DNA of 24,000 nucleotides from positions 31,412 to 55,411 of the forward strand of contig JBBSGD010000008.1 of the NCBI GenBank assembly GCA_038254435.1. Direction: 5' to 3'. The notes under the pieces are model-generated. The model searched no databases, had not been told where the DNA came from, and was given only the letters and a program-made list of their open reading frames with translations. Position 1 is the first letter of the stretch. Each line of letters starts with the position of its first letter. This stretch comes from Actinomycetota bacterium (GTDB lineage: Bacteria; Actinomycetota; CADDZG01; WHSQ01). Of the stretch, positions 2,852-15,608 are shown piece by piece. The translations under genes were made by a program, and so were the position numbers.

Positions 2852-3406
2852 TTGCGGCTAGCTCTGTGTAGTCGACCCCACCACCGTCACACACTCCCGA
2901 ATCCCCTACATCCCAGACGGATACTTGGCACACCTAAGGGGATCGAGGCATGGACGTGGGCACCGGGCATGCCGTGTCCGCCTGTGGGCACCGATGCGAC
3001 CATGGCCTGGATCAAGAACGACGGTTGGGTGTGGGTGTTCTGCGCCGTCGACCACTTCTCGGCCGAGGCGTGGACTTCTGTCGCCAAGCGCGGTGATCGC
3101 TTCGCTTCTCTCGAGCCGATCTACGACGCGGTCACCGATCGCTTCGACAGGGTCGACGCCGATCTCGCCCGCGGCATCGCGCTGCGGCACGACTGGGGGC
3201 CGCAATACACCTCCGGTCACTTCCAGGGGGCGATCGCCTGGCTGGGGATCGAAGACAGTCCCGCGCTCGCCGGTGAGCCGCCCTGCAACGGCTGTGCCGA
3301 GCGCTTCATCCGGACGCTCAAGGAGCAGTGCCTGTGGGCACGGCTCTACGAGGACATGGAAGATCTCCGCCAGGCGGCGATCGAATTCACCCATTGCTAC
3401 GGATGA
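2852..3406 (+). mobile_element. IS remnant: truncated DDE (rve integrase-core) transposase lacking the N-terminal HTH region and the C-terminal tail
   Basis: The translation contains GTDATMAW..DGWVWVFCAVDHFSAEAW (first D), ALRHDWGPQYTS (second D) and NGCAERFIRTLKEQCLW (E). There is no DNA-binding N-terminus upstream. The ORF ends at ...EFTHCYG*, where homologs continue with about 40 more residues. Confidence 0.8.
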
Positions 3407-3820: not shown

Positions 3821-4093
3821 GTGTGGAATGACCGGGTAATCGCGGCGAGCGACGACACCATCGTGGTGGAGGGAAACCACTACTTCCCGAAGGAGTCCGT
3901 CGAGACCTCGTTTCTGAGAGAGAGCCGTTCCAAGAGCTTGTGCCTGTGGAAGGGGGTCTGCAGCTACTACACGGTCGAGGTCGACGGCGCAAGGAACGAA
4001 GACGCCGCCTTCTACTACGCAAGACCCTCGTTGCTCGCCCGCCGGATCAAGGGTCGGATCGCATTCTGGAAGGGAGTGCGGATCGAAAAATGA
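3821..4093 (+). CDS. DUF427 domain-containing protein
   Basis: WNDRVIAASDDTIVVEGNHYFPKESV...CLWKGVCSYYTVEVDG..NEDAAFYYARP...RIAFWKGV is the DUF427 signature. The track start is GTG 3821. The in-frame upstream codons read IVKAVWN, and an SD GAGGAGG sits 6 nt before ATA 3809 (see findings). Confidence 0.85.
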   Translation: MWNDRVIAASDDTIVVEGNHYFPKESVETSFLRESRSKSLCLWKGVCSYYTVEVDGARNEDAAFYYARPSLLARRIKGRIAFWKGVRIEK

Positions 4094-4109: not shown

Positions 4110-4650
4110 TCAACGAGCGCTGTCTCTCGGACTTTTAAGATCGTAGTGCCGCTCGGCCCGCTCGGCCCCGGCCCAGTGAGCCTCGAGCTCGACCCCCAAG
4201 CCCTCGACAACCCTATTCACGTAGTTGAAGTAGGAGGCGATCTGGTTCGCGTCCACGATCGCCCGATCGTCGAACCCTGGCTTGGCGCAGAGCCTCCACA
4301 TCCGACTCCCCTACCGAGTCAACCTTGAGGGTCAGCTTGACGGCGTAACGGCACAACGCGGCCATGCGTGGAGTCAATCGATCGAAGGAACCGGAGGCGA
4401 CCGCCTCCTTCAGAGGTCCGTCGCCCGATTCCCGGGTCAACGAAGCTCCATGATGTGTCACTCAATAAGGGCAGTCGTTGCCTGCGGAAACGACGACGGC
4501 GATCGCTTCCCTCTCCGCGCGAGAAAGCGGCGACGCGCCAAACATGATGGCCCGGTAGAGGGCCAGGTGTCCCCGCAAAGCCTCTCGGTTCAGGGAGTGC
4601 GAGGCTAACGTTGTCGAGACCCTCGCACCTTCTGCCTTATCAACCCACAC
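4110..4650 (-). pseudogene. AhpD/carboxymuconolactone-decarboxylase-fold 'peroxidase-related enzyme', interrupted by an in-frame TGA (4462-4464) and a +1 frameshift (about 4278)
   Basis: Three track ORFs (4462-4650, 4213-4461, 4110-4301) concatenate into one family-like protein: ...LSRAEREAIAVVVSAGNDCPY[TGA]VTHHGASL...RMAALCRYAVKLT...ESDVEALRQA[shift]GFDDRAIVDANQIASYFNYVNRVVEGLGVELE. Confidence 0.8.
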
Positions 4651-5362
4651 GGAATCTTCCTCCCCGTCCGGCGGCCAGCTTTCCCAGCGCTTCCGGCTGC
4701 TCGATCCGAACCTCTGCGTATCCGAGAGACACCAGGCCCTTTTCTTCCAGCTGTTTCAGGATCTTGTTCAGTGAGGGACGTTGGGCCCCTAGCATGGCAG
4801 CGAGAGTTCTTTGAGGCAGGGGAATGCGGCCGTCTCTCTCCTCGTCGAGCAGCAGGCGGGCCACCTGTTCAACGAGCGAGCGGCCGAGCAGCTCCATGAT
4901 CCTCGCCTGGCTGGCAGAGACCCGGGCGGCCACGCTCGAGAGCCATCTCCTGGCGATCGTGGGGTGCTCGGTGAGAAGGGATTCGAAGTTCGCCGGTTCC
5001 AACAGCAGCACCCGCGTGCGCTCGAGGGTCCGGGCCGAATAGGGCATGCTCATGCCCAAGATCAGCTGCAGATCCCCATCCACCTCTCCGGGGCGCAGCA
5101 GCCCTACGACCGAGCGGCGAGGACCCGATCCAACGACCATCTCCGAGACCCCCGCGCGCATGATGAGAGCTCCGGGCGGAGCGTCGCCGGCGTGGAACAG
5201 AAGGGCGCCTCGCTCGTGTTCCCGGGGTGAGAGGTAGGAGGCTAAGGCAGCGAGGTCTTCCTCGATCAGGGGAGTGGTACGGCTGTCTCCCACGCAGCGA
5301 GCCACCCAGGCTGCCTCCTGAAGCCCCCTGTCGGGTCCCTTTCCCGAAAACAAAGCCGTCAT
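4640..5362 (-). CDS. Crp/Fnr-family transcriptional regulator (cNMP-binding domain + C-terminal HTH)
   Basis: The effector domain reads GALLFHAGDAPPGALIMRAGVSEMVV...GEVDGDLQLILG. The HTH reads LPQRTLAAMLGAQRPSLNKILKQLEEKGLV. The start is uncertain. The options are ATG 5362 (no SD), GTG 5305 (AGGAGG 8 nt upstream), and the track's GTG 5599, which would add an atypical 79-aa extension. Confidence 0.85.
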   Translation of the reverse strand: MTALFSGKGPDRGLQEAAWVARCVGDSRTTPLIEEDLAALASYLSPREHERGALLFHAGDAPPGALIMRAGVSEMVVGSGPRRSVVGLLRPGEVDGDLQLILGMSMPYSARTLERTRVLLLEPANFESLLTEHPTIARRWLSSVAARVSASQARIMELLGRSLVEQVARLLLDEERDGRIPLPQRTLAAMLGAQRPSLNKILKQLEEKGLVSLGYAEVRIEQPEALGKLAAGRGGRFRVG

Positions 5363-5461
5363 GAAGATGACATTGTAGGAGCTGCCGCATTCCTGGTCCT
5401 CCCTCACGTCGATTTCTGGCCGAGCCAAGGCGACCGCGCGACGCTCCGCTTGGGGCACTTG

Positions 5462-5477
5462 TGTCAGACGGCTGACA
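5462..5477. promoter_or_regulatory. TGTCA-N6-TGACA inverted repeat, a candidate Crp/Fnr-type operator in the divergent intergenic region
   Basis: The sequence tgTGTCAgacggcTGACAtt sits 100 nt upstream of ATG 5362. It has the same architecture as the CRP-class consensus TGTGA-N6-TCACA. A 5+5 palindrome is expected many times by chance in 24 kb, so only its position supports it. Confidence 0.3.
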
Positions 5478-5588
5478 TTGTCGGGAACGCCCACCCCTCG
5501 TGACGGGTTCGCCCAGGCGCAATCATCCCGCCGCTTCGCAGTCCGAGCGGGTGAGAAGCGTCTCGGTCGGGCGGTCTGAGGAATGAGG

Positions 5589-5822
5589 ATGGCAAACACA
5601 ACCGCGCGAGGGCGTAAGACGCGCTCGTTGCGCCGGGATCACCAACCTACTTTCGGGACCCGCAGGAGAAGGTGGGTCGCGTCGATCATGGGCGGCATCG
5701 TCGTGGTCGGGGGTTTCACCTTCTTTTTTTCTAACCGGCTCGGCGGGCGGGAGGGTTTCGGTATCGGGTCATGCGACGTGGCTCCTTTGATCGTCCCCTT
5801 TTGTCGTAGGAAGGAGCCATGA
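5589..5822 (+). CDS. hypothetical small membrane protein (basic N-terminus + one TM helix)
   Basis: ATG 5589 has GAGGA about 7 nt upstream, and there is also an ATG at 5583. The predicted TM segment is WVASIMGGIVVVGGFTFFF. The stop overlaps the SRPBCC start (ATGA at 5819-5822). I recognise no homology. Confidence 0.3.
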   Translation: MANTTARGRKTRSLRRDHQPTFGTRRRRWVASIMGGIVVVGGFTFFFSNRLGGREGFGIGSCDVAPLIVPFCRRKEP

Positions 5823-6319
5823 GGACCCGGCCGATTGGGCTGAAGCGGCAGCGCGTCCCGGTCTCGGCGCCGCGGTCGCTCACCTTCGAGGTCGTGGCAA
5901 GCGCCGGCAAGTCACTCGAGGAGCGGCCGGACGGCGCCAAGGTCGTGCAGTTCTCCACCACCTTCCGGGGTAAGGAGGTCCCCACCACGGAGCTGGTCGT
6001 TATCGAGCCGCCTGACCACATCCGTTACGAATGGCTCCAGGGTCCGCTGCCCGAGGTGAACGAGATCATTTCCTTCATCGACAACGGCGAGGGGACCGAG
6101 CTGGTCTACGAGGGAGATTTCTCCGCGGGGCCGGGGCTCATCAATTGGGTCTACGGACGGCTGGTGGTCAAGCCGATATTCGACAGGCTTGTCCTGAAGC
6201 ACCTCGAACAGAGCAAATGCATGGCAGAGCAGAGGGCGAGGAGAACCCGGGTCCACCCCGGCCCCACCGCCGACGACTCCAGCAACCACTCCCTGCCTAG
6301 GTCACAGCCCACCACCTGA
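5819..6319 (+). CDS. SRPBCC (START/polyketide-cyclase-like) family protein
   Basis: ATG is preceded by GGAAGGAG. The pattern VPVSAPRSLTFEVVA...IRYEWLQGPLPEVNEIISFIDNGEGTELVYEGDF...VVKPIFDRLVLKHLEQ is typical of Polyketide_cyc2/SRPBCC folds. Confidence 0.7.
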   Translation: MRTRPIGLKRQRVPVSAPRSLTFEVVASAGKSLEERPDGAKVVQFSTTFRGKEVPTTELVVIEPPDHIRYEWLQGPLPEVNEIISFIDNGEGTELVYEGDFSAGPGLINWVYGRLVVKPIFDRLVLKHLEQSKCMAEQRARRTRVHPGPTADDSSNHSLPRSQPTT

Positions 6320-6354: not shown

Positions 6355-7143
6355 TCAAGCTCTCGTCGCGCTGAACAGCTTGTAGCCGAGCACGCCGTCT
6401 CCGACCGCCTCTATGCCAAGAGAGACCAGGTCGCGCCCCACCTTTAAGGCTTCCGGTCGGAGGCCGGGCCGCAGGGCGTCGAGATCGATCCCTCCAGCTC
6501 TAACGACCATCTCGGCTAAAGCCAAACGGCGGCGCACCTGCTCGAGCAGGCCGCCGAGCTCGTAGTCGAGCGACACGCTCCTCGGGTCCCCGAAGCCGGC
6601 CTCGCCCAAGAGGCTTTCGTATCCGGAACTCCCAAGCGCCCCGCCGACGCACGCGCTCCACGAAACAAGCGGGTCGAGCGGCAGCGGCAGCTCGCCCTCA
6701 AGCGTCACATCCGACAAGGCGATGCGGCCCCCCTTTCGCACAACTCGGTGCAGCTCGCCGAGCGCGGCTGCCTTGTCCGGAACGAGCGACAGGACACACT
6801 CGGCAATGGCGCCGTCCAACGACGCGGGTCGCAGAGGGAGGTTCTCCGCCGCTCCCACCGCCGCGACGCTCGTCTCGGAGGCGACCTTCACGGCATCCGG
6901 TGCGAGATCGATCCCGACCGGGACCATACCGGCGTCGGCGAGCGAGCGGACGCCGAAGCCGCCTCCGCAGCCCAGGTCGAGCACGAGGGAACCGCGTGCA
7001 AGCGCGAGGTCCTCCACGGTCGCGGCCGTCGTTCGTTCACCGCCGGGATGCATCCGCTCGCCGAGCAGGAGGTGTGCCAGAGGGTGGCTCCACACCGAGC
7101 AGCAGGTGCGGCGCAGAACGGCTTTTTCGGGGGCCTCGATCAT
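6355..7143 (-). CDS. ArsM-like class I SAM-dependent methyltransferase
   Basis: The SAM motif is VLDLGCGGGFG. DGAIAECVLSLVPDKAAALGELHRVVRKGGRIALSDV resembles ArsM 'D.VISNCVINLS.DK...RVLKPGGR.A.SDV'. SWSACVGGAL...YESLLGEAGF resembles ArsM 'W.GC.AGAL...Y...L..AGF'. There is an N-terminal CC pair (RTCCSVW). ATG 7143 overlaps the upstream TGA (ATGA). Confidence 0.85.
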   Translation of the reverse strand: MIEAPEKAVLRRTCCSVWSHPLAHLLLGERMHPGGERTTAATVEDLALARGSLVLDLGCGGGFGVRSLADAGMVPVGIDLAPDAVKVASETSVAAVGAAENLPLRPASLDGAIAECVLSLVPDKAAALGELHRVVRKGGRIALSDVTLEGELPLPLDPLVSWSACVGGALGSSGYESLLGEAGFGDPRSVSLDYELGGLLEQVRRRLALAEMVVRAGGIDLDALRPGLRPEALKVGRDLVSLGIEAVGDGVLGYKLFSATRA

Positions 7144-8618
7144 GTCATCGGTAGTTCGCTCGCCGCGGGCCGGGCCCTACGCCCTGGCGCGAACCGGTGC
7201 AGGGTGTTGTAGACGCAGAAGGGGATGATGCGCCCATCGGGGAGCGCCTCCTGGATGCAGCAGCGCTTGGCGCGTGAGACGTCGAAGTTGTGGCGGTCCA
7301 TGAACGCCTCGATGGTGATCGAGAACAGGCTGCCCACCACCTCGGAAGAATCGAGCTCCATGATCGGCCCGCAAGCGCAGGCGAAAGCGGCCGCCTGTCC
7401 CTGCGATCCCGCCGGGTTGGACTTCGAATAGAGCTGTTCCAGGGTGGCGCGCATCTCCGCGAAGTCCGACTCGAAGGCCGGAGTGAGGACCGGAAGAGCG
7501 GCATTGGAGACGTAATCGAGGTAGTCCTCGACCTCGACCATGCGCGGCAGCGGCATGACCTCGGCCCCGTTGGTCCACGCATAAGTCGCCGCCGTGCACA
7601 TCGGGTCACAGCAAGGGATGGGGATGAAGTCGGACTTGAGAAAGGTTCCTCCCGTCTGGTGCTCGACGGCATCGATCACGTCGGTAACCGTCGTGCGATC
7701 CATCGGGTCGAAGGGGACCCACCGGCCCTCACCGAACTGCGGCTGGAAGCTGACCGCCCGCACCGCCGGGTGGTCGAGGCCGAGCTGGATGATCGCTCCG
7801 ATCTCGTGATCGTTGACGCCCTTGGCGATGGTGGCGACGAGAACGACCGGAACCCCGGCCCGCCCGAGCTGATCGAGAGCTTCGAGCTTGACCCCGAGCA
7901 GGTCGGCGCGGTCGCGCATCGCCTCCAGCGAAGATGCCTCGAAGCCATCGAACTGAAGGTAGACCTTGACGCCGAGCTCGCCGGCGAGCTCGCAAACCCG
8001 CCGGTCGCGCCCGAAGCGGATCCCGTTTGAGTTGACCACCGTGTGCTTGACTTTCCCGCTGCCTGCCACCAGCGCCATGACCTCGCCGAAGCGGGGGTGG
8101 ATCGTTGGCTCCCCGCCTGACAGCATTACGACGTCGGCCGGGCCTCCTTCCGCCGCCACGACCGCATCGAGCATCGCCTCGATCTCGTCGAGCGAGGCAT
8201 GGGAGCCGTGCGGGCTCGCGGCGAAGCACGCGGGGCATTCGAGGTTGCAGGCCTGGGTGATCTCCAGCAGGGTCACGCAGGCGTGCTGCTCGTGCTCGGG
8301 GCAGAAGCCGCAGTCGTAGGGGCAGCCGTGCTCGGTTTCTGTCGCGGTGTGTACGGGTGCTCGCCCCGGTCGTTTGAACTTGCGGCTCCAGCGATACCAG
8401 GAGGCATCCGAGCAGGTCAGAACGGAGTGCTTCCCGTGCTCGGGGCAGTGCTTCACCATGAGGATCCGCCCGGCGGACTCGACGATGTCGGCGGGAACCA
8501 GACGCTTGCAGTGAGAGCAGAGGGAGTCGGTGTGGCTTATGAGGGCGGCCGGGGCACCTTCTCGAACCTGTTGCGTCACCGTAAAAGCCCCCTTTTCGAC
8601 CTCTTGATCACCCGTCAC
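7140..8618 (-). CDS. radical SAM enzyme with N-terminal rubredoxin-like Cys motifs (COG1964 / tetraether-synthase-like architecture)
   Basis: The CxxxCxxC motif is CNLECPAC, followed by SGGEPT. The N-terminus has CSHC...MVKHCPEHG and GCPYDCGFCPEHEQHAC. The C-terminus has IPIPCCDPMC and FMDRHNFDVSRAKRCCIQ...IPFCVYN. The start is GTG 8618, or GTG 8579 with AAGGGGG about 8 nt upstream. Confidence 0.9.
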   Translation of the reverse strand: MTGDQEVEKGAFTVTQQVREGAPAALISHTDSLCSHCKRLVPADIVESAGRILMVKHCPEHGKHSVLTCSDASWYRWSRKFKRPGRAPVHTATETEHGCPYDCGFCPEHEQHACVTLLEITQACNLECPACFAASPHGSHASLDEIEAMLDAVVAAEGGPADVVMLSGGEPTIHPRFGEVMALVAGSGKVKHTVVNSNGIRFGRDRRVCELAGELGVKVYLQFDGFEASSLEAMRDRADLLGVKLEALDQLGRAGVPVVLVATIAKGVNDHEIGAIIQLGLDHPAVRAVSFQPQFGEGRWVPFDPMDRTTVTDVIDAVEHQTGGTFLKSDFIPIPCCDPMCTAATYAWTNGAEVMPLPRMVEVEDYLDYVSNAALPVLTPAFESDFAEMRATLEQLYSKSNPAGSQGQAAAFACACGPIMELDSSEVVGSLFSITIEAFMDRHNFDVSRAKRCCIQEALPDGRIIPFCVYNTLHRFAPGRRARPAASELPMT

Positions 8619-8658: not shown

Positions 8659-9351
8659 TTGGTAGAGCCCGGTAACCTCATCGCCTTCAGACCGGTTCGG
8701 AGTGTCTGCTCGCTTACAGAGGTTGGCCCGAATGCTATCGGCGAGGGGGGTTCCCACGGGAGGGATCTCGAGATAGGGAAGGGTACAGTCATCGGCGAGG
8801 CGACGTGGGACCGAGCGGCCCGCTTCTATCGGTTGCAGCAAACCCTCGAACGTCCCTCCCTTGGTGCTGCCGCAGCGCTTAGCGCGGTCGAGTCGCATCA
8901 CAGGCTGCTGGACCTCGGAACGGGAACCGGGGCCGTTCTGGCCGAGTTCGCGTCGGCGCGGCGGCGTCTTCGCCTCGCCGTCGGGGTCGAGCTTTCTCCG
9001 CAGATGTTGATCCGCGCTAAGAGGAGGCATGCCGGGCATCTAATCCGAGCCGACGCCGGCACTCTGCCTTTCGATGATGGCTCCTTTGACGTTGTGGTCG
9101 CGGCCTGGACGGTGAAGCGCTCGGATGCTGATGTCACCGTCTCGATGTGCGCCGAGGAGGTGTGTCCGCTCACACCCGGCGTCCGGCGGATCAGCTGGGA
9201 CTTACCGGATCCCAAGAGCCTACGGATCGAGCAGGTGAGGGAGATCCGCGACGATATCGGTGCCGCGTTGAGGCGCTCCTCGCTCAACTGGACGGTAGAG
9301 CTGCGCAGTCTAGAGGGCGAGTCGCACCCCCATAGGAAGAAGGCAACGTGA
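8659..9351 (+). pseudogene. chimeric relic: 5' part of a class I methyltransferase fused in frame to the 3' part of an LMW-PTP-type arsenate reductase (ArsC)
   Basis: Residues to about 152 carry RLLDLGTGTGAVL...LSPQMLIRA...LPFDDGSFDVVVAAW (methyltransferase motifs I-II only). From about nt 9115 the frame reads ADVTVSMCAEEVCPLTPGVRRISWDLPDP...VREIRDDIGAAL. This aligns with the B. subtilis ArsC C-terminus (ADLVVTLCGDAADKCPMTP...HWGFDDP...VRDEIGNRL). The catalytic CTGNSCRS N-terminus is absent. Confidence 0.6.
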
Positions 9352-9390: not shown

Positions 9391-10647
9391 TCACCGCCCG
9401 GCGATGGCCGTGTGCGGGTGAAAGGCAGCCCAGGCGAACCAGAAGGCAGTCTCTTGGGCGACGGGCTGCAGGCTCGCACCGGCGAGAGGCCCGGACACGA
9501 TCCGGCCGAACATGTTGATGCGTCCTCCGGTCCGGTCATCCACGAACCCATCATCACTTGCCCGGACCTCGACGAGGCGCCCACGTGCCCTCGCCGCCCA
9601 CACCGTTGCCGACCAGCTTTGGGGACCGGCGTCCACGAGCCGGGACGTCTCCGGTTGGTGGACGCCGAAGTGGAACAGAGCCACCAGCGCACGGCCATCG
9701 AGTCGCGCGTGCTCAACCACCCGGCCTTGCCCGTGCGACGGAAACGGAAAGGCGACGGAACCCGAACGGCCGGCGACACCGATAACCCTCGTCTTGGGCG
9801 GGAGCCGAGGGTCCGTGTATGAACGCAGCGACGAATCCGGCGACGGCCTGAAGAAGATGCTGTCCTGAGACGCGTCCGACCCATAGCCCGCATAGGGATC
9901 GGTCCGATAGCTCGCGTTGGAGCGGGGCGGCGCGAGCACCTTGCCCGCGGGATGCGCTCGCTTCCATGCGCCGAAGGGAACCGTCAGAGCGAGAATGGGC
10001 TTGAGGCGGCGCCCGGTCTCGGAACCGCTCAAGGGGCGACCGCTTATCTGGCTCCACAGTGAAAGGGTCTCGAAATCGAACATGACGAGGTTGGCGTGGA
10101 AGAGCTCGCCTGAAACTCCGAAGCTGAGGGTGCGACCACCGGCCGTTCTCGAGTAAGCGACCCCGCTGTTGCACAGCGGACAGTAGGAGACAACCACAGG
10201 ACGACCGCCGACGACGTCGTTGACGACCTCGTGGTAGAGGAGGATTCTGACCGGATAAGCGCGCGCGTCACCGTGGATCGAGACGGAGATGACTAGGTCG
10301 GCCCGGTTGAGGTAGCCGGCGTCGCGGGCCGCTTGGAATGTGGGGTGGCGGATCGCAGGTATCGAGTTGAAGGGCACGCAGAAGGCCCCCACCCCCTGGG
10401 AGATGGCGGCGGTGTTATGGGCCGGAGTGCAGGTCTGCTGCGTGACCCGCTCCAGCCGGTGCAGCCGAGAGCGGGGACTTTGCCGCCCACGATCCCCAAG
10501 TGGTCGCGAATCCCGGGCAGCTGGTCCCAGGGCCACCGATCTGGAAGCGTCGGACGGGCCCCGGGCGCCCGGCGGCAGAGAGCCTCCCGCAGAGGTGCAG
10601 GCGGCCACCAAGAGGACAGATCCGACACAGGCGGCCGCGAGTTTCAT
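9391..10647 (-). CDS. DUF3179 domain-containing lipoprotein
   Basis: ATG 10647 overlaps the anti-sigma stop (ATGA). The signal is MKLAAACVGSVLLVAAC with a lipobox. The DUF3179 core is ARAYPVRILLYHEVVNDVVGGRPVVVSYCPLCNSGVAYSR...SFGVSGELFHANLVMFDFETLSLWSQ. The track start at 10764 is a longer upstream extension. Confidence 0.85.
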   Translation of the reverse strand: MKLAAACVGSVLLVAACTSAGGSLPPGARGPSDASRSVALGPAARDSRPLGDRGRQSPRSRLHRLERVTQQTCTPAHNTAAISQGVGAFCVPFNSIPAIRHPTFQAARDAGYLNRADLVISVSIHGDARAYPVRILLYHEVVNDVVGGRPVVVSYCPLCNSGVAYSRTAGGRTLSFGVSGELFHANLVMFDFETLSLWSQISGRPLSGSETGRRLKPILALTVPFGAWKRAHPAGKVLAPPRSNASYRTDPYAGYGSDASQDSIFFRPSPDSSLRSYTDPRLPPKTRVIGVAGRSGSVAFPFPSHGQGRVVEHARLDGRALVALFHFGVHQPETSRLVDAGPQSWSATVWAARARGRLVEVRASDDGFVDDRTGGRINMFGRIVSGPLAGASLQPVAQETAFWFAWAAFHPHTAIAGR

Positions 10648-11330
10648 CTCAACTTCAATCGCGCCGCGGCCCTGTCCACGTCGCGCGCGTCGTCGCCTAT
10701 CACGAGGGAGGACACCGGTCGCGGCGCGCAGTAGAGAACTGCCTCCCCGAGCGTCGCCGTCCATGTTTCCTCAGAGGCGAGGTGGACCGCTCCGTTTGCC
10801 GTCGGAAACGGTCCGTCGGCGCGGTAGACGACGAGGTGATGCCCGGCGTGGTCCCGATACTTGTAGGCGACGAGCCTAAGCCCGCCGATCTCGCCTTGGC
10901 GCGCCCCGCGCAGCACCAGGTCGCCGATGTGCTGCGGCAGCTTTGGAGTCGCGGCACGGACCAGCACCCGTTGGCCTCGGTAGTCCGTCAGGACCGCTTG
11001 GATGACCGCCGGCTGATGAGTGGATGCCTGCCACCAATAGCCAAGGCCGGCGAGAGACATCACCATGGCCATGGCTGTGGCCAGCAGGACGAGATGGCGC
11101 CGGCGGGCGGGATGCTCCACGCCGGCGACCACGGTGCGAACCCGTTCCTTGAGGAACTGTGGGGCGAGCTCCCGGGCTGATTCCGCCAAGCTTCGGCCGC
11201 GCCGCGCCACTTGCACCTCGTTCCAGCAGTCCTCGCACTCGAGCATGTGACGCTCGAAGGCCCGCCGTCGGCGCGCCCCCATCAGGCCCGCAAGGTAGGT
11301 GGCGGCGTTGCGTTCCGGCTCATGTGCCAT
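10644..11330 (-). CDS. membrane-anchored anti-sigma factor with zf-HC2 (ZAS) motif
   Basis: The N-terminus FERHMLECEDCWNEV carries H-x3-C-x2-C. There is a single TM helix, LVLLATAMAMVMSLAGLGYWW. It lies directly downstream of the ECF sigma gene and overlaps it by 11 nt. Confidence 0.8.
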   Translation of the reverse strand: MAHEPERNAATYLAGLMGARRRRAFERHMLECEDCWNEVQVARRGRSLAESARELAPQFLKERVRTVVAGVEHPARRRHLVLLATAMAMVMSLAGLGYWWQASTHQPAVIQAVLTDYRGQRVLVRAATPKLPQHIGDLVLRGARQGEIGGLRLVAYKYRDHAGHHLVVYRADGPFPTANGAVHLASEETWTATLGEAVLYCAPRPVSSLVIGDDARDVDRAAARLKLR

Positions 11331-11841
11331 ATTCGTTCACCTCGCTCGCCAGGAGCGCGGCCAGCCTCTTGCGCCCCCGGTGCACACGCGACAAGACGGT
11401 GCCCCGCGGCGAGCCCGTGAGCTTGGCTACCTCCAGCGCGGTCAGACCCGCCAGGTCCATGAGGGTGATCGCCACCCGCTGTTCCTCCGGGAGCTGCCAC
11501 AGGGCCTCGTGCACGACGGTACGGCGGAGGGCCGCGATCGCTTCATCGGCCGCGTCGACATCCTCGTGGGGCCAGCGGACCTCTTGCACCGGCGTCTCGT
11601 AGCGGTAGGCCGCCCTGCGCAGGAGGCTCCGGCCCGCATTGAGGCAGATGGTCGCGATCCACGGCTCCACCCGGCGTGGGCGCCGATTGGTCGTCCACGC
11701 TTGGAAAGCCTTGAGGTACGTCTCCTGCACCAGGTCCTCGACGTCTTGCTGATTGCGCGCGAGTCGCCGAGCGAGGTTGTATACGAGGTCCAGTGCCGGC
11801 AGCGTCGCGTTGAGAAACTCGTCCGCAGGACGCGTCTTCAT
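11320..11841 (-). CDS. ECF-type RNA polymerase sigma-70 family factor
   Basis: Region 2 is DVEDLVQETYLKAFQAW. Region 4 is TLMDLAGLTALEVAKLTGSPRGTVLSRVHRGRKRL. ATG 11841 forms an ATGA overlap with the upstream stop. The track start at 11880 is a TTG. Confidence 0.9.
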   Translation of the reverse strand: MKTRPADEFLNATLPALDLVYNLARRLARNQQDVEDLVQETYLKAFQAWTTNRRPRRVEPWIATICLNAGRSLLRRAAYRYETPVQEVRWPHEDVDAADEAIAALRRTVVHEALWQLPEEQRVAITLMDLAGLTALEVAKLTGSPRGTVLSRVHRGRKRLAALLASEVNEYGT

Positions 11842-13058
11842 CCCCGCCACACCTTGGTGTCGGGATGGAAGGCGGCCCAATCAAACCAGAACGAGTCCGT
11901 CGCGTTCGCCGACCGGAGCTGCGTGCCCTTAAACCGCCCCGAGATCGCACGGCCGAAGATGTTCCAGGCGCTGTGCGTCCTTTCGTCGACGAGCCGGCCT
12001 CGGACCGATGCGAATCGAAGCGGCCTTCCCTTCACGAGGGGGCGGAAGGCAGCCGCCGCGCCGACGCGCTTGGAGGTAGCGATAGTCGGTGCGTCCAGGG
12101 CCGAAGCCGCGCCCCTCTTCCACACGACGAGGGCCGAGCGGCCGGCGACGTGCGTGTTGATCGCCGCGACCCCGTTCCTCGCTCGTGCCGCGAGAGCTGC
12201 GTATGGGAACGCAACGTAACTGCGGCCTGCGGACACCCCGAGTACCCGGTCGACCGCCTCGAGCCGGCCGTCGGTAGGTCCCTCGAACAAGAACGGAGGA
12301 TTGTTGACGTTGTCGTAGCCCGGGTAGGGGTTGTTTGCGTACGGTCGATCAAACCCGGTGGCGCGCGTCAGCACGCGGCCGTCTGGAAAGGAGGCCTCGA
12401 AGTCGGCCCACGCGACGATGCGTGCCGGCACCCGCTTCAGAAGCGCTCCCTTGAGCGACCCGGCAACCGCCTGCCCGAGGGCTTGCGGCCACAACGAATC
12501 GGTGGCTCGATCGTACATGACGAGGTTCGAGTGGTAGAGACTTCCCGAGGTCCCGAAGGTCGTCGCAGTGCCCTTGACGGTGGGGCGGACGTATGCCAAA
12601 GCCGTGTTGCACAGCGGGCAGAAGGTCACGGCCACCGGGGTCCCGCCCACGACGTCGTTTACGATCTCATGCCACGTCATGATCTCGAGTGGGTAAGCGC
12701 GGGCCTCGCCGCCGACCTCGATCTCGACAACAGGCTCTTGCGGCTTCAGGAAATCGATCTCTGCGACCGGGGCGAGGTCCGGTTGGTCCAGTGCGGGAAT
12801 GGAGTCCTTGGAGACCACGGCCCGGATGTTCGAGGGCGACACCGTGACTCGTATGTGCCGGGTGACAAGGCCTCGCACGTCCCCTGAAGATGCCGTCGTG
12901 TGTGCCTCGCCGGCCGAGCGTTGCGAGGAAGGCTGCCCGCCGGGAACGACGGCTAGGGCCACAATGACCGTGGCGGCAACGGCCAGTCCTGCAACGATCC
13001 CAAGGAGGCGCCGCTTGCGCCGGCCCAACACCCAGTTCGGCTTGCCCGTGGGGCCCAT
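11838..13058 (-). CDS. DUF3179 domain-containing protein with N-terminal signal anchor
   Basis: The core is ARAYPLEIMTWHEIVNDVVGGTPVAVTFCPLCNTALAYVR...FGTSGSLYHSNLVMYDRATDSLWPQ. The TM segment is LLGIVAGLAVAATVIVALAVV. ATG 13058 shares 1 nt with the TlpA stop (TGATG). The track start at 13061 is a TTG. Confidence 0.85.
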   Translation of the reverse strand: MGPTGKPNWVLGRRKRRLLGIVAGLAVAATVIVALAVVPGGQPSSQRSAGEAHTTASSGDVRGLVTRHIRVTVSPSNIRAVVSKDSIPALDQPDLAPVAEIDFLKPQEPVVEIEVGGEARAYPLEIMTWHEIVNDVVGGTPVAVTFCPLCNTALAYVRPTVKGTATTFGTSGSLYHSNLVMYDRATDSLWPQALGQAVAGSLKGALLKRVPARIVAWADFEASFPDGRVLTRATGFDRPYANNPYPGYDNVNNPPFLFEGPTDGRLEAVDRVLGVSAGRSYVAFPYAALAARARNGVAAINTHVAGRSALVVWKRGAASALDAPTIATSKRVGAAAAFRPLVKGRPLRFASVRGRLVDERTHSAWNIFGRAISGRFKGTQLRSANATDSFWFDWAAFHPDTKVWRG

Positions 13059-13642
13059 CAACCGATCCCGAAAGCCTCGTGAATCCTTTGGCGCAGGAGC
13101 CCGGCCGTGAGCTGTCCGGTGACTTCGTCGACGACTCTGCCGCGGGCATCGATGAATACGGTCGTGGGCATGCCGGTGCCGCCGAAGGCGTCGAAGACCC
13201 GGCCCTGCGGATCGGATGCGAGGCGATAGCGGACACCGGTCTGGGCCGCGAGGCGGTCCGCTCCATCGCGGCTGTCGCGCTGATCGATGCCCACGAACGC
13301 CACTTCGTTGCCGAGTGTCTGGAACTCACGCTGGAATGCGGGCATCTCCGCGGCGCAGTTTGGGCACCACGACGCCCAGAAGTTGAGGACGAGCGGCCTG
13401 CCCTTGTATGCGGCCAGCGAGAACCGTTTGCCCTCGAAGTCGATCAACGACACGCGCGGCGCCGGTTGCCCGCCTACCTGCACCCCTTTGTCGGAGCCTC
13501 CGAAGAGCAGGAATCCGAGACCGGCAAGGCCGGCGATGACGACGACCGTGACGGCGGCCCTCATCCTCGTTTGCTTGGGTTGAACGAGATGCCGCGGGGG
13601 CTTGCGGGAGCTAGCCTTGCGCCGTCTCTTGTCGTCGCCCAT
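13058..13642 (-). CDS. TlpA/ResA-family thiol-disulfide oxidoreductase (membrane-anchored thioredoxin fold)
   Basis: The motif is LVLNFWASWCPNCAAEMPAF (WCxxC). The signal anchor is AAVTVVVIAGLAGLGFLLF. ATG 13642 has GAGAGAAGGA upstream. The track start at 13756 is a GTG with no better support. Confidence 0.9.
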   Translation of the reverse strand: MGDDKRRRKASSRKPPRHLVQPKQTRMRAAVTVVVIAGLAGLGFLLFGGSDKGVQVGGQPAPRVSLIDFEGKRFSLAAYKGRPLVLNFWASWCPNCAAEMPAFQREFQTLGNEVAFVGIDQRDSRDGADRLAAQTGVRYRLASDPQGRVFDAFGGTGMPTTVFIDARGRVVDEVTGQLTAGLLRQRIHEAFGIG

Positions 13643-14897: not shown

Positions 14898-15608
14898 GTG
14901 AGGCTCGCCTCTACAGCCGTGCGAACAGCCGACCCATATCGGGACATCGACGTCATAGACGCCCGGGCCCCTCGGCTCAACCAGGCGACCGTGGGGATAC
15001 TCAGCCTCGTGGCCGTCCTGACCGGGTGGTGGTGGCTCCTCGGGCTGCTCGCCGTGCAGTTGATCGCGGGGCTGACCCTCGGTCGCAAGTTCTGTCTTCC
15101 GTGCGTCTTCTATTTCGAGGTAGTGCAGCCGCGCATCGGCGAGGGCGAGATCGAGGACTCACGGCCCCCGAGGTTCGCCAACATCCTCGGTTCCGTATTC
15201 CTCGGCGCGGCCACACTGGCCCACCTTGTCAATCTCAGCACGCTCGGCTGGGTGCTTGGCGGGATCGTGGCGGCGTTGGCGCTAGTCGCGGCGGCTACCG
15301 GTCTCTGCGTCGGCTGCGAGCTCTACCGCGCGGTGGCGCGCGCCCGCGGCGTTAGGTCGGGGGAAGTGAGAGCCGTCGATCTCGCAGAGCTCGGGGTCAC
15401 GCCGGGAGACGAGATCGTGGTGCAGTTCACCCACCCACTGTGTACCGAGTGTCGGGACCTAGAAACAAGGCTCACCGCGTCGCGGCGGCGTCTGGTTTCG
15501 GTGGACGTCTCCAAGCGGCCCGACATAGCCCACAGATACCACGTCTCCGTCGTCCCCGCCGCATTCAGTGTCGACCGCGAGGGCACCGTCCTGGAGAGAC
15601 TCGCCTAA
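14898..15608 (+). CDS. DUF4395 membrane domain fused to a C-terminal thioredoxin/glutaredoxin-like CxxC domain
   Basis: The start is GTG. The DUF4395 pattern is APRLNQATVGILSLVAVLTGWWWLL...GRKFCLPCVFY...PPRFANILGSVFLG...ATGLCVGCELY. The C-terminus is IVVQFTHPLCTECRDLE...DIAHRYHVSVVPAAFSVDREGTV (CTEC motif, Trx-like). Confidence 0.8.
   Translation: MRLASTAVRTADPYRDIDVIDARAPRLNQATVGILSLVAVLTGWWWLLGLLAVQLIAGLTLGRKFCLPCVFYFEVVQPRIGEGEIEDSRPPRFANILGSVFLGAATLAHLVNLSTLGWVLGGIVAALALVAAATGLCVGCELYRAVARARGVRSGEVRAVDLAELGVTPGDEIVVQFTHPLCTECRDLETRLTASRRRLVSVDVSKRPDIAHRYHVSVVPAAFSVDREGTVLERLA

Follow-up and report, generated by a model that had tools for sequence, protein, structure and literature searches.

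A translationally coupled Tes-type radical SAM enzyme and ArsM-like methyltransferase in an Actinomycetota bacterium

The closest defined system to the gene pair described here is the TrsS / DVU_1553-DVU_1557 neighbourhood (NF045646, NF045667, NF045669, NF045666 and NF045645), which was defined bioinformatically. Its radical SAM enzyme is related to Tes, its short methyltransferase resembles ArsM and, by alignment, retains both ArsM cysteines, and a pyridine-nucleotide-disulfide oxidoreductase is also part of it. PMC13188914 lists TrsS as one of several new selenoprotein families and credits these to Haft and Tolstoy, 2025. This neighbourhood was not considered in the original prediction for our locus.

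Three other systems invite comparison. The first is archaeal Tes/GDGT-MAS, which is the M. jannaschii enzyme of PDB 7TOL (PMC13459092; see also 7TOM). The second is ArsM/AS3MT, represented by CmArsM (PDB 4FR0/4FS8). The third comprises the ArsL/ArsM and ArsS/ArsM pairs, which make arsinothricin and arsenosugars, respectively, and which broadly resemble our pair in placing a radical SAM enzyme beside a cysteine-bearing ArsM-type methyltransferase. However, ArsL and ArsS belong to other radical SAM families, and in them the SAM-derived radical is the alkyl donor. These arsenic pairs are located in ars operons. PMC8552651 places arsQML in such an operon.

The window analysed here is a stretch of 24,000 nucleotides in which the genes for a Tes-related radical SAM enzyme and an ArsM-like methyltransferase with two conserved cysteines lie next to each other, as they do in the TrsS system. 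The original prediction was that the pair builds and then methylates an unusual arsenic-carbon, or lipid carbon-carbon, product. Its premises of a coupled pair, a Tes-type enzyme and ArsM cysteines stood, whereas a conserved link to arsenic did not.

Table 1. Features of the locus, in positions of the window
Feature	Position	Strand	Description
Crp/Fnr-family regulator	4640..5599	-	cNMP_binding + HTH_Crp_2
SRPBCC/START-like protein	5819..6319	+	Convergent with methyltransferase gene; Pfam Polyketide_cyc2 E 5.9e-5, under family cut-off
Class I SAM methyltransferase gene	6355..7143	-	262 aa; DVU_1556-like and ArsM-like
Putative substrate-site cysteines of methyltransferase	C14/C15 7099-7104; C116 6796-6798; C165 6649-6651	-	
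SAM motif I of methyltransferase	6958-6984	-	VLDLGCGGG
ATGA stop/start overlap	7140..7143	-	Translational coupling; read from sequence
Radical SAM gene	7140..8618	-	492 aa; start option at 8579 gives 479 aa; Tes/GDGT-MAS-type four-domain architecture
C-terminal domain	7215..7613	-	Eight clade-invariant Cys (C336, C337, C341, C414, C416, C453, C454, C468); alignment
Radical SAM cluster motif	8226..8249	-	C124-x3-C128-x2-C131; seen in sequence, invariant, inside PF04055
N-terminal auxiliary [4Fe-4S] motif, predicted	8277..8324	-	GCPYDCGFCPEHEQHAC (C99, C103, C106, H109, H112, C114); alignment
Rubredoxin-like zinc ribbon, N-terminal	8412..8540	-	Residues 27-69; PF23545 E 1.8e-15
Chimeric pseudogene	8659..9351	+	Second, generic methyltransferase (N-terminal half, ~8797-9114) + thioredoxin-type ArsC (C-terminal part, ~9109-9276)
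DUF3179 protein	9391..10764	-	CPLC motif; PF11376 E 2.9e-79

A coupled gene pair with conserved cysteine ligands

The radical SAM and methyltransferase genes form a real, intact, translationally coupled and functionally linked two-enzyme module, and the bacterial family of which it is a member is large and uncharacterised. At the junction the minus strand reads ...CCG ATG ACA TGA / ATG ATC GAG, so that the ATGA noted earlier is indeed common to the stop of the first gene and the start of the second. Of 64 related loci, 36 had the same 4-nt overlap and 57 had either an overlap or no more than 20 nt between the genes. In one metagenomic locus (L090) the two enzymes are naturally fused in a single protein (P0090). 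The NCBI and Logan gene calls place the radical SAM start 13 codons downstream, giving the shorter product in Table 1.

All of the motifs quoted in the original prediction were present in both proteins. In the radical SAM protein these are C34SHC37...C58PEHG, GC99PYDC103GFC106PEH109 and C124NLEC128PAC131, and towards the C-terminus PC336C337DPMC341, RC453C454IQ and PFC468VYN; its cysteines showed no variation in alignments of 25 homologues or of 64 clade members. In the methyltransferase they are C14C15, AEC116VLSLVPDK, KGGRIALSDV and SAC165VGGAL. The invariance of the cysteines among homologues shows that these motifs did not arise by chance.

The radical SAM protein is a COG1964/Tes-type enzyme with the Tes/GDGT-MAS fold and predicted auxiliary metal centres, as had been proposed. 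Pfam identified Radical_SAM (PF04055) and Zn_ribbon_HMPTM. Against NCBIfam, the TrsS model scored 312.8 bits (cut-off 490) and the Tes model (NF045702) 307.3 bits (cut-off 450), the latter match covering profile positions 2-314 of 486, or the N-terminal two thirds only. The protein matched 7TOL over its full length (E 3.2e-69, 31% identity), and its AF2 model (pLDDT 78) superposed on the four-domain fold of 7TOL with a Foldseek TM of 0.77 over 488 columns. The ligand sets of the Tes structure (3Cys+His, 3Cys+His and CX3CX2C) are matched by invariant residues here (PMC13459092). Thus C34, C37, C58 and H61, the proposed zinc ribbon ligands, are invariant in homologues and correspond to the identical 3Cys+His set at the rubredoxin-like site of Tes (PMC13459092). 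The predicted N-terminal cluster motif GCPYDCGFCPEHEQHAC aligns with GCPYDCGLCPNH of 7TOL, and its C99, C103, C106, H109, H112 and C114 were invariant in 89 of 89 sequences from the methyltransferase-paired, Lgt-paired and TrsS groups, except that H112 is an arginine in TrsS. The CC...C cluster motif of the Tes C-terminus is also conserved.

The C-terminal domain is where this protein departs from Tes. Its eight cysteines were kept in 55-57 of 57 sequences of the methyltransferase-paired (MT) clade and in 7/7 close relatives. MjTes has counterparts only for C341, C453/C454 and C468, and the 7TOL alignment shows none for C336, C337, C414 and C416, so that the clade carries four invariant cysteines beyond those of Tes. 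Six of the eight are shared with TrsS. The extra cysteines could simply bind another electron-transfer cluster.

The likeness drawn earlier to the ArsL and ArsS pairs was not supported as kinship: beyond the superfamily core the protein appears unrelated to these enzymes. Neither the ArsS model (TIGR04167) nor an ArsL model was among the best 25 of its 38 NCBIfam matches, and the radical SAM protein of a relative, L077, scored 39 bits on the ArsS model (cut-off 300).

The methyltransferase has a class I SAM fold and is locally similar to ArsM over residues 100-192. Its best NCBIfam match was the DVU_1556 family (123.5 bits, cut-off 155), followed by ArsM (PRK11873; 92.5 bits, cut-off 263), and the five best matches in a PDB sequence search were all ArsM structures. 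C116 and C165 align exactly to Cys174 and Cys224 of CmArsM, the As(III)-binding pair named in the prediction, with a spacing of 49 residues against 50. The objection that these cysteines might not be conserved among orthologues fails, because both are invariant (57/57 sequences); the N-terminal CC dyad was found in 54-55 of 57. The protein differs from ArsM in length (262 aa compared with ~380 aa), in having no ArsM C-terminal domain, and in the N-terminal cysteines: Cys44 and Cys72 were not found, and the GCGNP-type motif that holds Cys72, already noted as missing, is replaced by HPGG, with the CC dyad at residues 14-15 instead. The best fold matches of its model were AtmM/RebM, PMT, TleD, MitM and SpnF, which are sugar, phosphoethanolamine and terpenoid/polyketide methyltransferases; ArsM was absent among the best 50.

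Distribution and gene neighbourhood

We surveyed the 80 best-matching GTDB species loci, which comprise 60 MT-clade and 20 Lgt-clade loci. The methyltransferase-paired radical SAM proteins formed a single NJ clade from Chloroflexota, Acidobacteriota (including Bryobacterales) and Actinomycetota. A methyltransferase gene lay directly downstream of the radical SAM gene in 56 of the 58 assessable MT-clade loci (56/80 of all surveyed), which bears out the expected synteny with an ArsM-like gene; the only exceptions were two loci on truncated contigs and two from Anaerolineae. The cassette was also present in Streptomyces, Kitasatospora and Mycobacterium. This obligate pairing and the bacterial host, which its nearest named relatives place in the Actinomycetota, distinguish the enzyme from archaeal Tes, for which the literature cited here mentions no such partner.

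The sister clade, found in Paenibacillus, cyanobacteria, Planctomycetota and Bacteroidota, shows ~40% identity and has identical N-terminal and radical SAM motifs. In contrast, it has no methyltransferase, C336, C453 and C468 are mostly replaced, and the neighbours of the MT clade occurred in 0/20 of its loci. An Lgt-like membrane-protein gene lay within the locus in 16/20 cases, immediately upstream where the order was read, and in those loci a small transmembrane protein is encoded downstream.

The family of our pair is a sister of the TrsS / DVU_1553-1557 neighbourhood. Models of that system were the best NCBIfam matches of both window proteins and of their orthologues. A bona fide TrsS locus in a Desulfarculaceae MAG (L088) encodes a radical SAM enzyme, a two-cysteine methyltransferase and a pyridine-nucleotide-disulfide oxidoreductase; its TrsS protein scored 628 bits on the TrsS model and its methyltransferase 248 bits on the DVU_1556 model, compared with 128-134 bits (cut-off 155) for orthologues of the window methyltransferase. 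The two systems nevertheless differ. The gene order is not the same, the window methyltransferase following the radical SAM gene with the 4-nt overlap, and this methyltransferase bears the N-terminal CC dyad. L088 carries all of the DVU_1555, DVU_1557 and DVU_1553 accessory genes, whereas the Pfam families of the C-GCAxxG-C-C protein (DVU_1555), the redox protein (DVU_1557) and the PaaK-like CoA ligase (DVU_1553) were absent from the genes called on the window contig. The hosts of our pair are aerobic Actinomycetota, Chloroflexota and Acidobacteriota, and no selenocysteine forms were seen for it.

The commonest recurrent neighbour of the pair was a MerA/glutathione-reductase-like class I flavoprotein disulfide reductase, which occurred in 21/60 MT-clade loci from three phyla and in 0/20 Lgt-clade loci; it is missing from two thirds of the MT-clade loci, the window included. 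SRPBCC homologues were found in 12/60 MT-clade loci, in L090 and in 0/20 Lgt-clade loci, and the SRPBCC/START-like protein may have an accessory ligand-binding role. Genes for a CDP-alcohol phosphatidyltransferase (7/60) and PlsY (5/60) also recurred in the MT clade. DUF3179 homologues were present in 8/60 MT-clade loci and in L086/L087, and it is uncertain whether this protein is part of the module. Crp/Fnr homologues lay near the pair in 4/60 loci, the L040 and L080 matches being 49-56% identical, and the Crp/Fnr protein is a possible regulator of the pair.

The divergent neighbour of the radical SAM gene had been described as an ArsC relic that ties the locus to arsenic. A C-terminal ArsC part is present: residues 151-206 of this ORF match positions 71-127 of the 133 in the NCBIfam model of thioredoxin-type ArsC (E 7.9e-6) and residues 72-129 of pI258 ArsC (1JF8/1RXE), without the rest of the domain and its N-terminal CX5R P-loop. 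The ORF is not simply an ArsC fragment, however, as a class I methyltransferase contributes its N-terminal half at residues ~47-152. In L057 an intact 218-aa homologue is encoded divergently to the radical SAM gene, a second methyltransferase occurs in L043, L044 and L053, and the chimera's tail is frameshifted in the window by a 1-nt deletion relative to L002. The 'relic' is a lineage-specific deletion chimera, and the tie to arsenic drawn from it was not supported: none of the 60 orthologous loci matched the ArsC tail. Of the 148 proteins encoded nearest to the pair, most match one of 25 families, none of which is an ars family, so the expected synteny with ars genes was not found. Five contigs from the three closest relatives that we examined, whose proteins are 70-72% identical to that of the window, also carried no ars genes. 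We found no ars operon or ArsR context for the window's pair among the genes of its contig, these relatives and the 60 loci; in L090, HTH_5 regulators of the ArsR/SmtB type flank the fusion protein.

Alternative explanations and a proposed mechanism

We tentatively favour the idea that the pair is an uncharacterised sister of the TrsS/DVU_1556 system, with a C-H bond being functionalised and a thiol-bound heteroatom methylated. We counted in favour of this proposal the gene overlap, the fusion, the synteny, the Tes-type ligands, the ArsM cysteine alignment, the kinship with TrsS and the recurrent flavoprotein (21/60). We counted against it the methyltransferase fold ranking, in which ArsM does not appear among the best 50; the scores of both proteins, which fall under all curated family cut-offs; the loci without the flavoprotein; the SRPBCC, CDP-alcohol phosphatidyltransferase and PlsY genes, which point to ordinary lipid metabolism; and the possibility that the extra cysteines hold a further electron-transfer cluster.

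The first alternative is the synthesis of bacterial membrane-spanning lipids of the brGDGT/iso-diabolic acid type, where the radical SAM enzyme would couple two alkyl tails as Tes does and the methyltransferase would modify the lipid. The Tes fold and every Tes cluster ligand are retained, Acidobacteriota, Bryobacterales among them, are represented in the clade, the three lipid-related neighbours named above recur, and the methyltransferase fold resembles those of lipid and natural-product enzymes. We nevertheless consider this doubtful. It leaves unexplained the four invariant cysteines of the methyltransferase at the ArsM metalloid site and the associated disulfide reductase, as well as the four invariant C-terminal cysteines beyond those of Tes. 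The cassette is also present in Streptomyces, Kitasatospora and Mycobacterium, which, to our knowledge, are not known for tetraether lipids. Although the published candidates for brGDGT synthesis are bacterial Tes homologues (PMC8941075; bioRxiv 10.1101/2022.04.07.487437), no such homologue has been experimentally confirmed (PMC11868695), and only 3 of 14 iso-diabolic-acid-producing Acidobacteria had one (PMC13159169).

The second alternative, organoarsenical biosynthesis, would have the radical SAM enzyme form an As-C bond and the methyltransferase act as an ArsM, as in ArsL/ArsM or ArsS/ArsM. The aligned Cys174/Cys224 pair, the ArsM structures that head the PDB matches, the second rank of ArsM among NCBIfam families, the ArsC tail two genes away and the HTH_5 regulators beside the L090 fusion are consistent with it. 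Yet the ArsC tail recurs in none of the 60 loci, ars families are absent from the neighbour families and from the three nearest relatives, and ArsS and ArsL are outside the best 25 of 38 matches, with the ArsS score of L077 far under its cut-off. The methyltransferase itself scores well under the ArsM cut-off, has neither the GCGNP-region cysteine nor the ArsM C-terminal domain, and finds no ArsM among its best 50 fold matches. We therefore regard this explanation as improbable.

Very improbable, too, is a two-component radical C-methylation or methylthiolation, in which a pair of proteins would divide between them the chemistry that follows the logic of RlmN/Cfr or MiaB. The methyltransferase would load a methyl group on a cysteine, persulfide or cluster sulfide for the radical SAM enzyme to move to an unactivated carbon, for example as extra methyl branches of bacterial lipids. 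With regard to this explanation, the tight coupling, the fusion, the cysteine-rich proteins and the Pfam name HMPTM, taken from a proposed pterin dimethyltransferase activity, fit it, but its basis is purely analogy, we take the HMPTM assignment of MJ0619 to be superseded by its Tes/GDGT-MAS function, and we know of no separate class I methyltransferase that charges a radical SAM enzyme.

Returning to the TrsS-like proposal, we suggest the following mechanism. The radical SAM enzyme would split SAM at its CX3CX2C cluster, and the 5'-deoxyadenosyl radical would take a hydrogen from the substrate, which is probably hydrophobic, at an unactivated sp3 carbon. The steps past hydrogen abstraction are inferred by analogy. 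The carbon radical may be trapped, as in Tes, by sulfur or another soft heteroatom at the C-terminal auxiliary site, which here has eight invariant cysteines rather than four. Instead of being resolved to a C-C bond, the resulting C-X species (X being S, Se or a metalloid, for example As) would be handed to the methyltransferase, which may use C116 and C165, along with the N-terminal CC dyad, to grip X between them and then methylate it with SAM. The disulfides formed in the cycle could be re-reduced by the dedicated MerA/glutathione-reductase-like flavoprotein where it is encoded nearby; the window lacks this gene. Arsenic is a possible, but unsupported, identity of the heteroatom.

Implications for bacterial Tes homologues

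Bacterial Tes homologues serve as genomic markers for the producers of brGDGTs, which are palaeoclimate biomarkers, and none has been characterised (PMC8941075; PMC11868695). One clade accounts for three quarters (60) of the 80 loci surveyed here. Functionally, this clade is almost obligately tied to an ArsM-like methyltransferase armed with cysteines, and about a third of its loci encode a MerA-like disulfide reductase. This pairing and the reductase are hard to reconcile with a simple tail-to-tail coupling of lipids. Either a methylation step that depends on a thiol or metalloid has gone unsuspected in brGDGT-type chemistry, or these genes are unfit to serve as markers of tetraethers.

In relation to the TrsS system, which is just as uncharacterised, the pair offers an aerobic counterpart that is free of Sec. 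It is a compact two-gene target, and because it occurs in culturable genera (Streptomyces, Kitasatospora, Mycobacterium and relatives of Ktedonobacteria), the question can be tested directly.

We also offer a speculation to which we give little weight, namely that the module forms carbon-heteroatom bonds by a third route, one that runs through a substrate radical. This radical would be created by a Tes-fold enzyme on the terminal carbon of a lipid tail and trapped by As(III), sulfide or selenide bound to the extra set of cysteines, after which the ArsM-like partner would methylate the heteroatom. We know of no established biosynthesis for arsenic-containing hydrocarbons and fatty acids. If true, this route would provide a bacterial pathway to such terminally dimethylarsinoyl (or methylthio or methylseleno) lipids, and many of the 'bacterial Tes homologues' that are counted as brGDGT markers would do something else.

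The coupled gene pair and its conservation

The ORF list and the junction sequence bear out the predicted translational coupling of a radical SAM gene to a methyltransferase gene. The minus-strand sequence across the junction is CCG ATG ACA TGA / ATG ATC GAG, and thus the ATGA at 7140-7143 is common to the radical SAM stop and the methyltransferase start. The motifs are also in their expected places (CSHC...CPEHG, GCPYDCGFCPEH, CNLECPAC, PCCDPMC, RCCIQ and PFCVYN in the radical SAM protein; the CC pair, AECVLSLVPDK, KGGRIALSDV and SACVGGAL in the methyltransferase), and the arrangement is far from chance. In public gene calls of the same contig the radical SAM protein has 479 aa, as its start is placed 13 codons further in. 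We reject the possibility that the pair is decayed or non-functional, since neither ORF is broken and no clade-invariant residue has been lost. No RNA family was found in an Rfam search of the window, a promoter scan gave 0 promoter-like sites, and a terminator scan gave terminator-like sites at chance level.

Coordinates of the pair and of neighbouring features in the window
Feature	Position	Strand	Remarks
rve (integrase core) match	~2969-3406	+	weak match, same contig
DUF427 (NTP_transf_9)	3821-4093	+	small protein
SRPBCC	5819-6319		
Methyltransferase	6355-7143	-	262 aa, ATG start
Radical SAM	7140-8618	-	492 aa, GTG start
Divergent ORF	8659-9351	+	methyltransferase and ArsC parts
DUF3179	9391-10764		
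Anti-sigma	10644-11330		
ECF sigma	11320-11880		
DUF3179	11838-13061		second paralogue
Redoxin-like	about 13058-13642		mapped from the call in L001
DUF4395	14898-15608		

Scanning a single genome for each GTDB species gave at least 571 relatives. We analysed the best 80, all at 39-45% identity, and counted genes at their loci by tblastn with named queries. A methyltransferase homologue lies directly downstream on the same strand in 56 of these best 80. When a neighbour-joining tree of the radical SAM proteins was rooted with a true TrsS, the methyltransferase-paired sequences formed one clade with the window protein and its close relatives. Only four clade members are without a methyltransferase: L009 and L032, whose contigs end too early, and the Anaerolineae loci L025 and L034. 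Among these best 80, the clade is drawn from Chloroflexota, Acidobacteriota, Actinomycetota (including Streptomyces, Kitasatospora, Actinomadura and Mycobacterium) and one MAG labelled Thaumarchaeota. In a partly redundant set of 64 loci, the identical 4-nt stop/start overlap occurs in 36, and an overlap or a gap of at most 20 nt in 57. In a 743-aa metagenome protein, P0090, radical SAM enzyme and methyltransferase are naturally fused. Proteins from Actinomycetota MAGs are the nearest relatives that bear a name. In the three nearest relatives that we examined (P0005, P0010 and P0013, aligning with the window protein at 70-72% identity), the pair is kept on 5/5 contigs and all surroundings differ.

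The P0090 fusion (L090, 8001-10232) has ArsR/SmtB-type HTH_5/HTH_20 regulators, glyoxalase-fold proteins, an AHSA1/SRPBCC protein and MFS fragments on its flanks. The contig binned as Thaumarchaeota (L041, 1309-3448) bears a bacterial-type pair and has the highest TrsS score, 351 bits, among the relatives whose scores were checked; it could be a mis-binned contig or a case of horizontal transfer.

The other 20 of the best 80 loci form a separate clade without the methyltransferase, found in Paenibacillus and other Bacillota, cyanobacteria, Planctomycetota and Bacteroidota. Their radical SAM proteins have other residues in place of several C-terminal cysteines. An Lgt-like membrane protein gene is present in 16 of the 20 loci; in the gene orders inspected it stands immediately upstream of the radical SAM gene, and a small transmembrane protein of ~100 aa is encoded downstream. 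Such radical SAM genes with a prolipoprotein diacylglyceryl transferase-like neighbour lie at positions ~5200-7800 in L045, L048, L060, L064, L065 and L069, and likewise in L072, L073, L076, L077 and L082. We regard these Lgt-flanked genes as a second module, where an action on lipids is more plausible.

Cofactor ligands and substrate-site cysteines

The radical SAM protein matches the Pfam Radical_SAM family and an HMPTM-type N-terminal zinc ribbon. Its best NCBIfam score is to TrsS (312.8 bits over the full length, cut-off 490), followed by the archaeal tetraether lipid synthase Tes (307.3 bits over the N-terminal two thirds only, cut-off 450). Because its scores stay below the HMM cut-offs, we exclude the protein from Tes and TrsS, and likewise from ArsL and ArsS, which are absent from the 25 best of its 38 NCBIfam matches. 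Some homologues are annotated by JGI as HMPTM (pterin dimethyltransferase); we reject this annotation too, as it rests on the superseded assignment of MJ0619.

The expected Tes-type architecture of the enzyme is supported by sequence and by a predicted structure. The sole strong PDB sequence match is the GDGT-MAS/Tes of M. jannaschii (7TOL, E 3.2e-69), with both halves aligned. An AlphaFold2 model (pLDDT 78, pTM 0.81) superimposes on 7TOL with a TM of 0.77 over 488 columns at 31% identity, and the fold matches that follow (SkfB, MoaA and viperin) cover the radical SAM core only. Four centres are described in a review for the Tes structure (PMC13459092): first a rubredoxin-like Fe and second an N-terminal [4Fe-4S], each with 3 Cys + His as ligands, then the radical SAM cluster, and lastly a C-terminal [4Fe-4S] with 3 Cys + Met. 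The counterparts in the window protein are, respectively, C34, C37, C58 and H61; C99, C103, C106 and H109; C124, C128 and C131; and C341, C453/C454 and C468, and all are invariant in 25 homologues and 64 clade members. Four further cysteines, C336, C337, C414 and C416, are clade-invariant and have no counterpart in the 7TOL alignment. Thus, the C-terminal domain may hold an additional metal or heteroatom site.

The partner is a class I SAM methyltransferase by Pfam. Among NCBIfam models it scores highest against the DVU_1556 family, which supplies the methyltransferase of the TrsS neighbourhood (123.5 bits, cut-off 155); arsenite methyltransferase comes second (92.5 bits, cut-off 263), and the matches that follow include several ArsM-like selenoprotein models. 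Membership of ArsM is rejected, because the score lies below the HMM cut-off. The best five PDB sequence matches are all arsenic methyltransferases (4FR0/4FS8, 4KW7, 5EG5, 5EVJ and 8XT7; E 4e-13 to 2e-10), spanning residues 100-192. Counted along this alignment, C116 falls on Cys174 and C165 on Cys224 of CmArsM, its As(III) ligands. The predicted conservation of these ArsM-type cysteines holds: among 56 syntenic orthologues and the window's own protein, both are invariant (57/57), the N-terminal CC dyad is present in 54-55 of the 57, and HPGG stands where ArsM has its GCGNP region. The folds closest to the AlphaFold2 model (pLDDT 84.6) are sugar, phosphoethanolamine and natural-product methyltransferases (AtmM/RebM, PMT, TleD, MitM and SpnF), and ArsM is not among the top 50. 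"ArsM-like" thus fits the substrate-site cysteines and the local sequence, not family membership or overall architecture.

Gene neighbourhood and the divergent ORF

Around the 60 methyltransferase-clade loci (tblastn, from the best 80 of at least 571 relatives) the most frequent neighbour is a class I pyridine-nucleotide-disulfide flavoprotein (21/60), followed by SRPBCC (12), DUF3179 (8), CDP-alcohol phosphatidyltransferase (7), MFS transporters (7), MauE-like proteins (6) and PlsY (5). All seven are absent from the 20 sister-clade loci. The flavoprotein scores highest against PRK06370 "FAD-containing oxidoreductase" (435 bits) and MerA (361 bits) but reaches neither cut-off; a representative from the acidobacterial locus L020 has a CxxxxC motif and lacks the MerA-type C-terminal Cys pair. 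No flavoprotein gene was found in the window, which also contains a Crp-type regulator gene.

Between 9391 and 13756, DUF3179 paralogues with a CPLC motif stand on either side of the ECF sigma and anti-sigma genes, and the redoxin and DUF4395 genes adjoin. This group looks like an extracytoplasmic thiol-redox cluster. DUF3179 is named in reviews on prokaryotic selenoproteins. By BLAST clustering, five further loci have DUF427 homologues close to the pair (L046, L047, L055, L063 and L080), four from Actinomycetota and one from a MAG labelled only Actinomycetes. The rve match, which lies ~3 kb away from the module, probably marks what is left of a transposase.

The divergent ORF had been described as an ArsC relic. 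The C-terminal part is indeed ArsC: residues 151-206 match the C-terminal part of thioredoxin-type ArsC, including the C82/C89-region motif and excluding the P-loop. Residues ~47-152 come from a generic class I methyltransferase, of which they form the N-terminal half. A Solirubrobacteraceae MAG (L057) has an intact 218-aa homologue of this half in the corresponding divergent place, and second methyltransferases of its type occur in L043, L044 and L053. From this two-part composition and these homologues, the ORF is a deletion chimera in which a second methyltransferase was joined to a once-adjacent arsC. It is not an assembly artefact, since it is present in two independent assemblies of the contig, L001 and L002. 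Relative to L002, which represents the same population, the window copy has lost 1 nt from a run of C (GGTG-CCGC against GGTGCCCGC), which frameshifts the last ~25 codons (window 9230-9351, L002 1390-1560); this is either further pseudogene decay or a sequencing error.

In three actinomycete genomes (L043 2627-5345, L044 3538-5763, from Spirillospora, and L053 4164-9046) the module is accompanied by a MerA-like flavoprotein and a second, cysteine-poor methyltransferase homologous to the chimera's N-terminal half. Thus, the ancestral cassette may have been fuller, with four genes.

Relation to the TrsS system and a model for the module

At the Desulfarculaceae locus L088, reached via the methyltransferase homologue P0140, each component of the DVU_1553-1557/TrsS neighbourhood scores above its NCBIfam cut-off: pyridine-nucleotide-disulfide oxidoreductase/dicluster protein (1003 bits), DVU_1557 redox protein, DVU_1556 methyltransferase (248 bits), DVU_1555 C-GCAxxG-C-C protein, TrsS (628 bits) and DVU_1553 CoA ligase. 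Like the window module, this system has a core of a Tes-like radical SAM enzyme and a two-cysteine ArsM-like methyltransferase. Its methyltransferase retains both ArsM-type cysteines, and its TrsS retains 6/8 C-terminal cysteines. One third of the window module's relatives also share a disulfide oxidoreductase with it. Gene order, accessory genes, phyla and scores set the window module apart. Judged by NCBIfam model names, a table in the review PMC13188914 and the one locus L088, the module is most aptly called a sister, so far unnamed, of the TrsS/DVU_1553-DVU_1557 system. TrsS has no experimentally assigned function, and we found no functional work on DVU_1555, DVU_1556 or DVU_1557 in the literature. 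The kind of system is only recently noticed, and the module itself is a new, unnamed variant of it.

Our data establish a coupled two-gene module with Tes-type cofactor ligands and an ArsM-type cysteine site. For its chemistry we tentatively propose a redox-coupled reaction on a heteroatom rather than plain lipid coupling, because a disulfide reductase recurs both in the methyltransferase clade and in the TrsS system. SAM would be cleaved at the radical SAM cluster, and hydrogen would be taken from an unactivated carbon of a hydrophobic substrate. The C-terminal site with its many cysteines would then catch the carbon radical; the Tes enzyme does so through a transient C-S bond to a sulfide of its cluster (PMC13459092). 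The partner could next methylate the heteroatom, held by its four cysteines as ArsM holds As(III), and the flavoprotein, where present, might recycle thiols.

The main rival is synthesis of membrane-spanning lipids, as proposed for bacterial Tes homologues (PMC8941075; bioRxiv 10.1101/2022.04.07.487437). We consider it unlikely, although the Tes-type fold and the lipid-related genes nearby give it some weight. Neither the invariant cysteines nor the disulfide reductase find an explanation in it; moreover, a Tes homologue occurs in only 3/14 Acidobacteria that produce iso-diabolic acid (PMC13159169), and no bacterial Tes homologue has been validated (PMC11868695). Arsenic, as a special case of heteroatom chemistry, is quite improbable: the original organoarsenical reading overreached, as the ArsC tail occurs in 0/60 methyltransferase-clade loci (tblastn), and ArsC, ArsB/ACR3 and ArsR are absent from the 25 Pfam families most matched by the 148 nearest neighbour proteins. 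The supposed historical tie of the locus to arsenic is thus confined to this lineage, where the chimera says that arsC was once nearby, and nothing general about the module follows. On arsenolipid biosynthesis, we found only work on ArsL and ArsS in the literature.

The module calls into question whether bacterial Tes homologues should serve as markers for tetraethers. It also provides a two-gene entry point to its radical chemistry in culturable hosts, among them Streptomyces vastus JCM 4524, Kitasatospora hibisci, Mycobacterium sp. SM1 and Dictyobacter alpinus.
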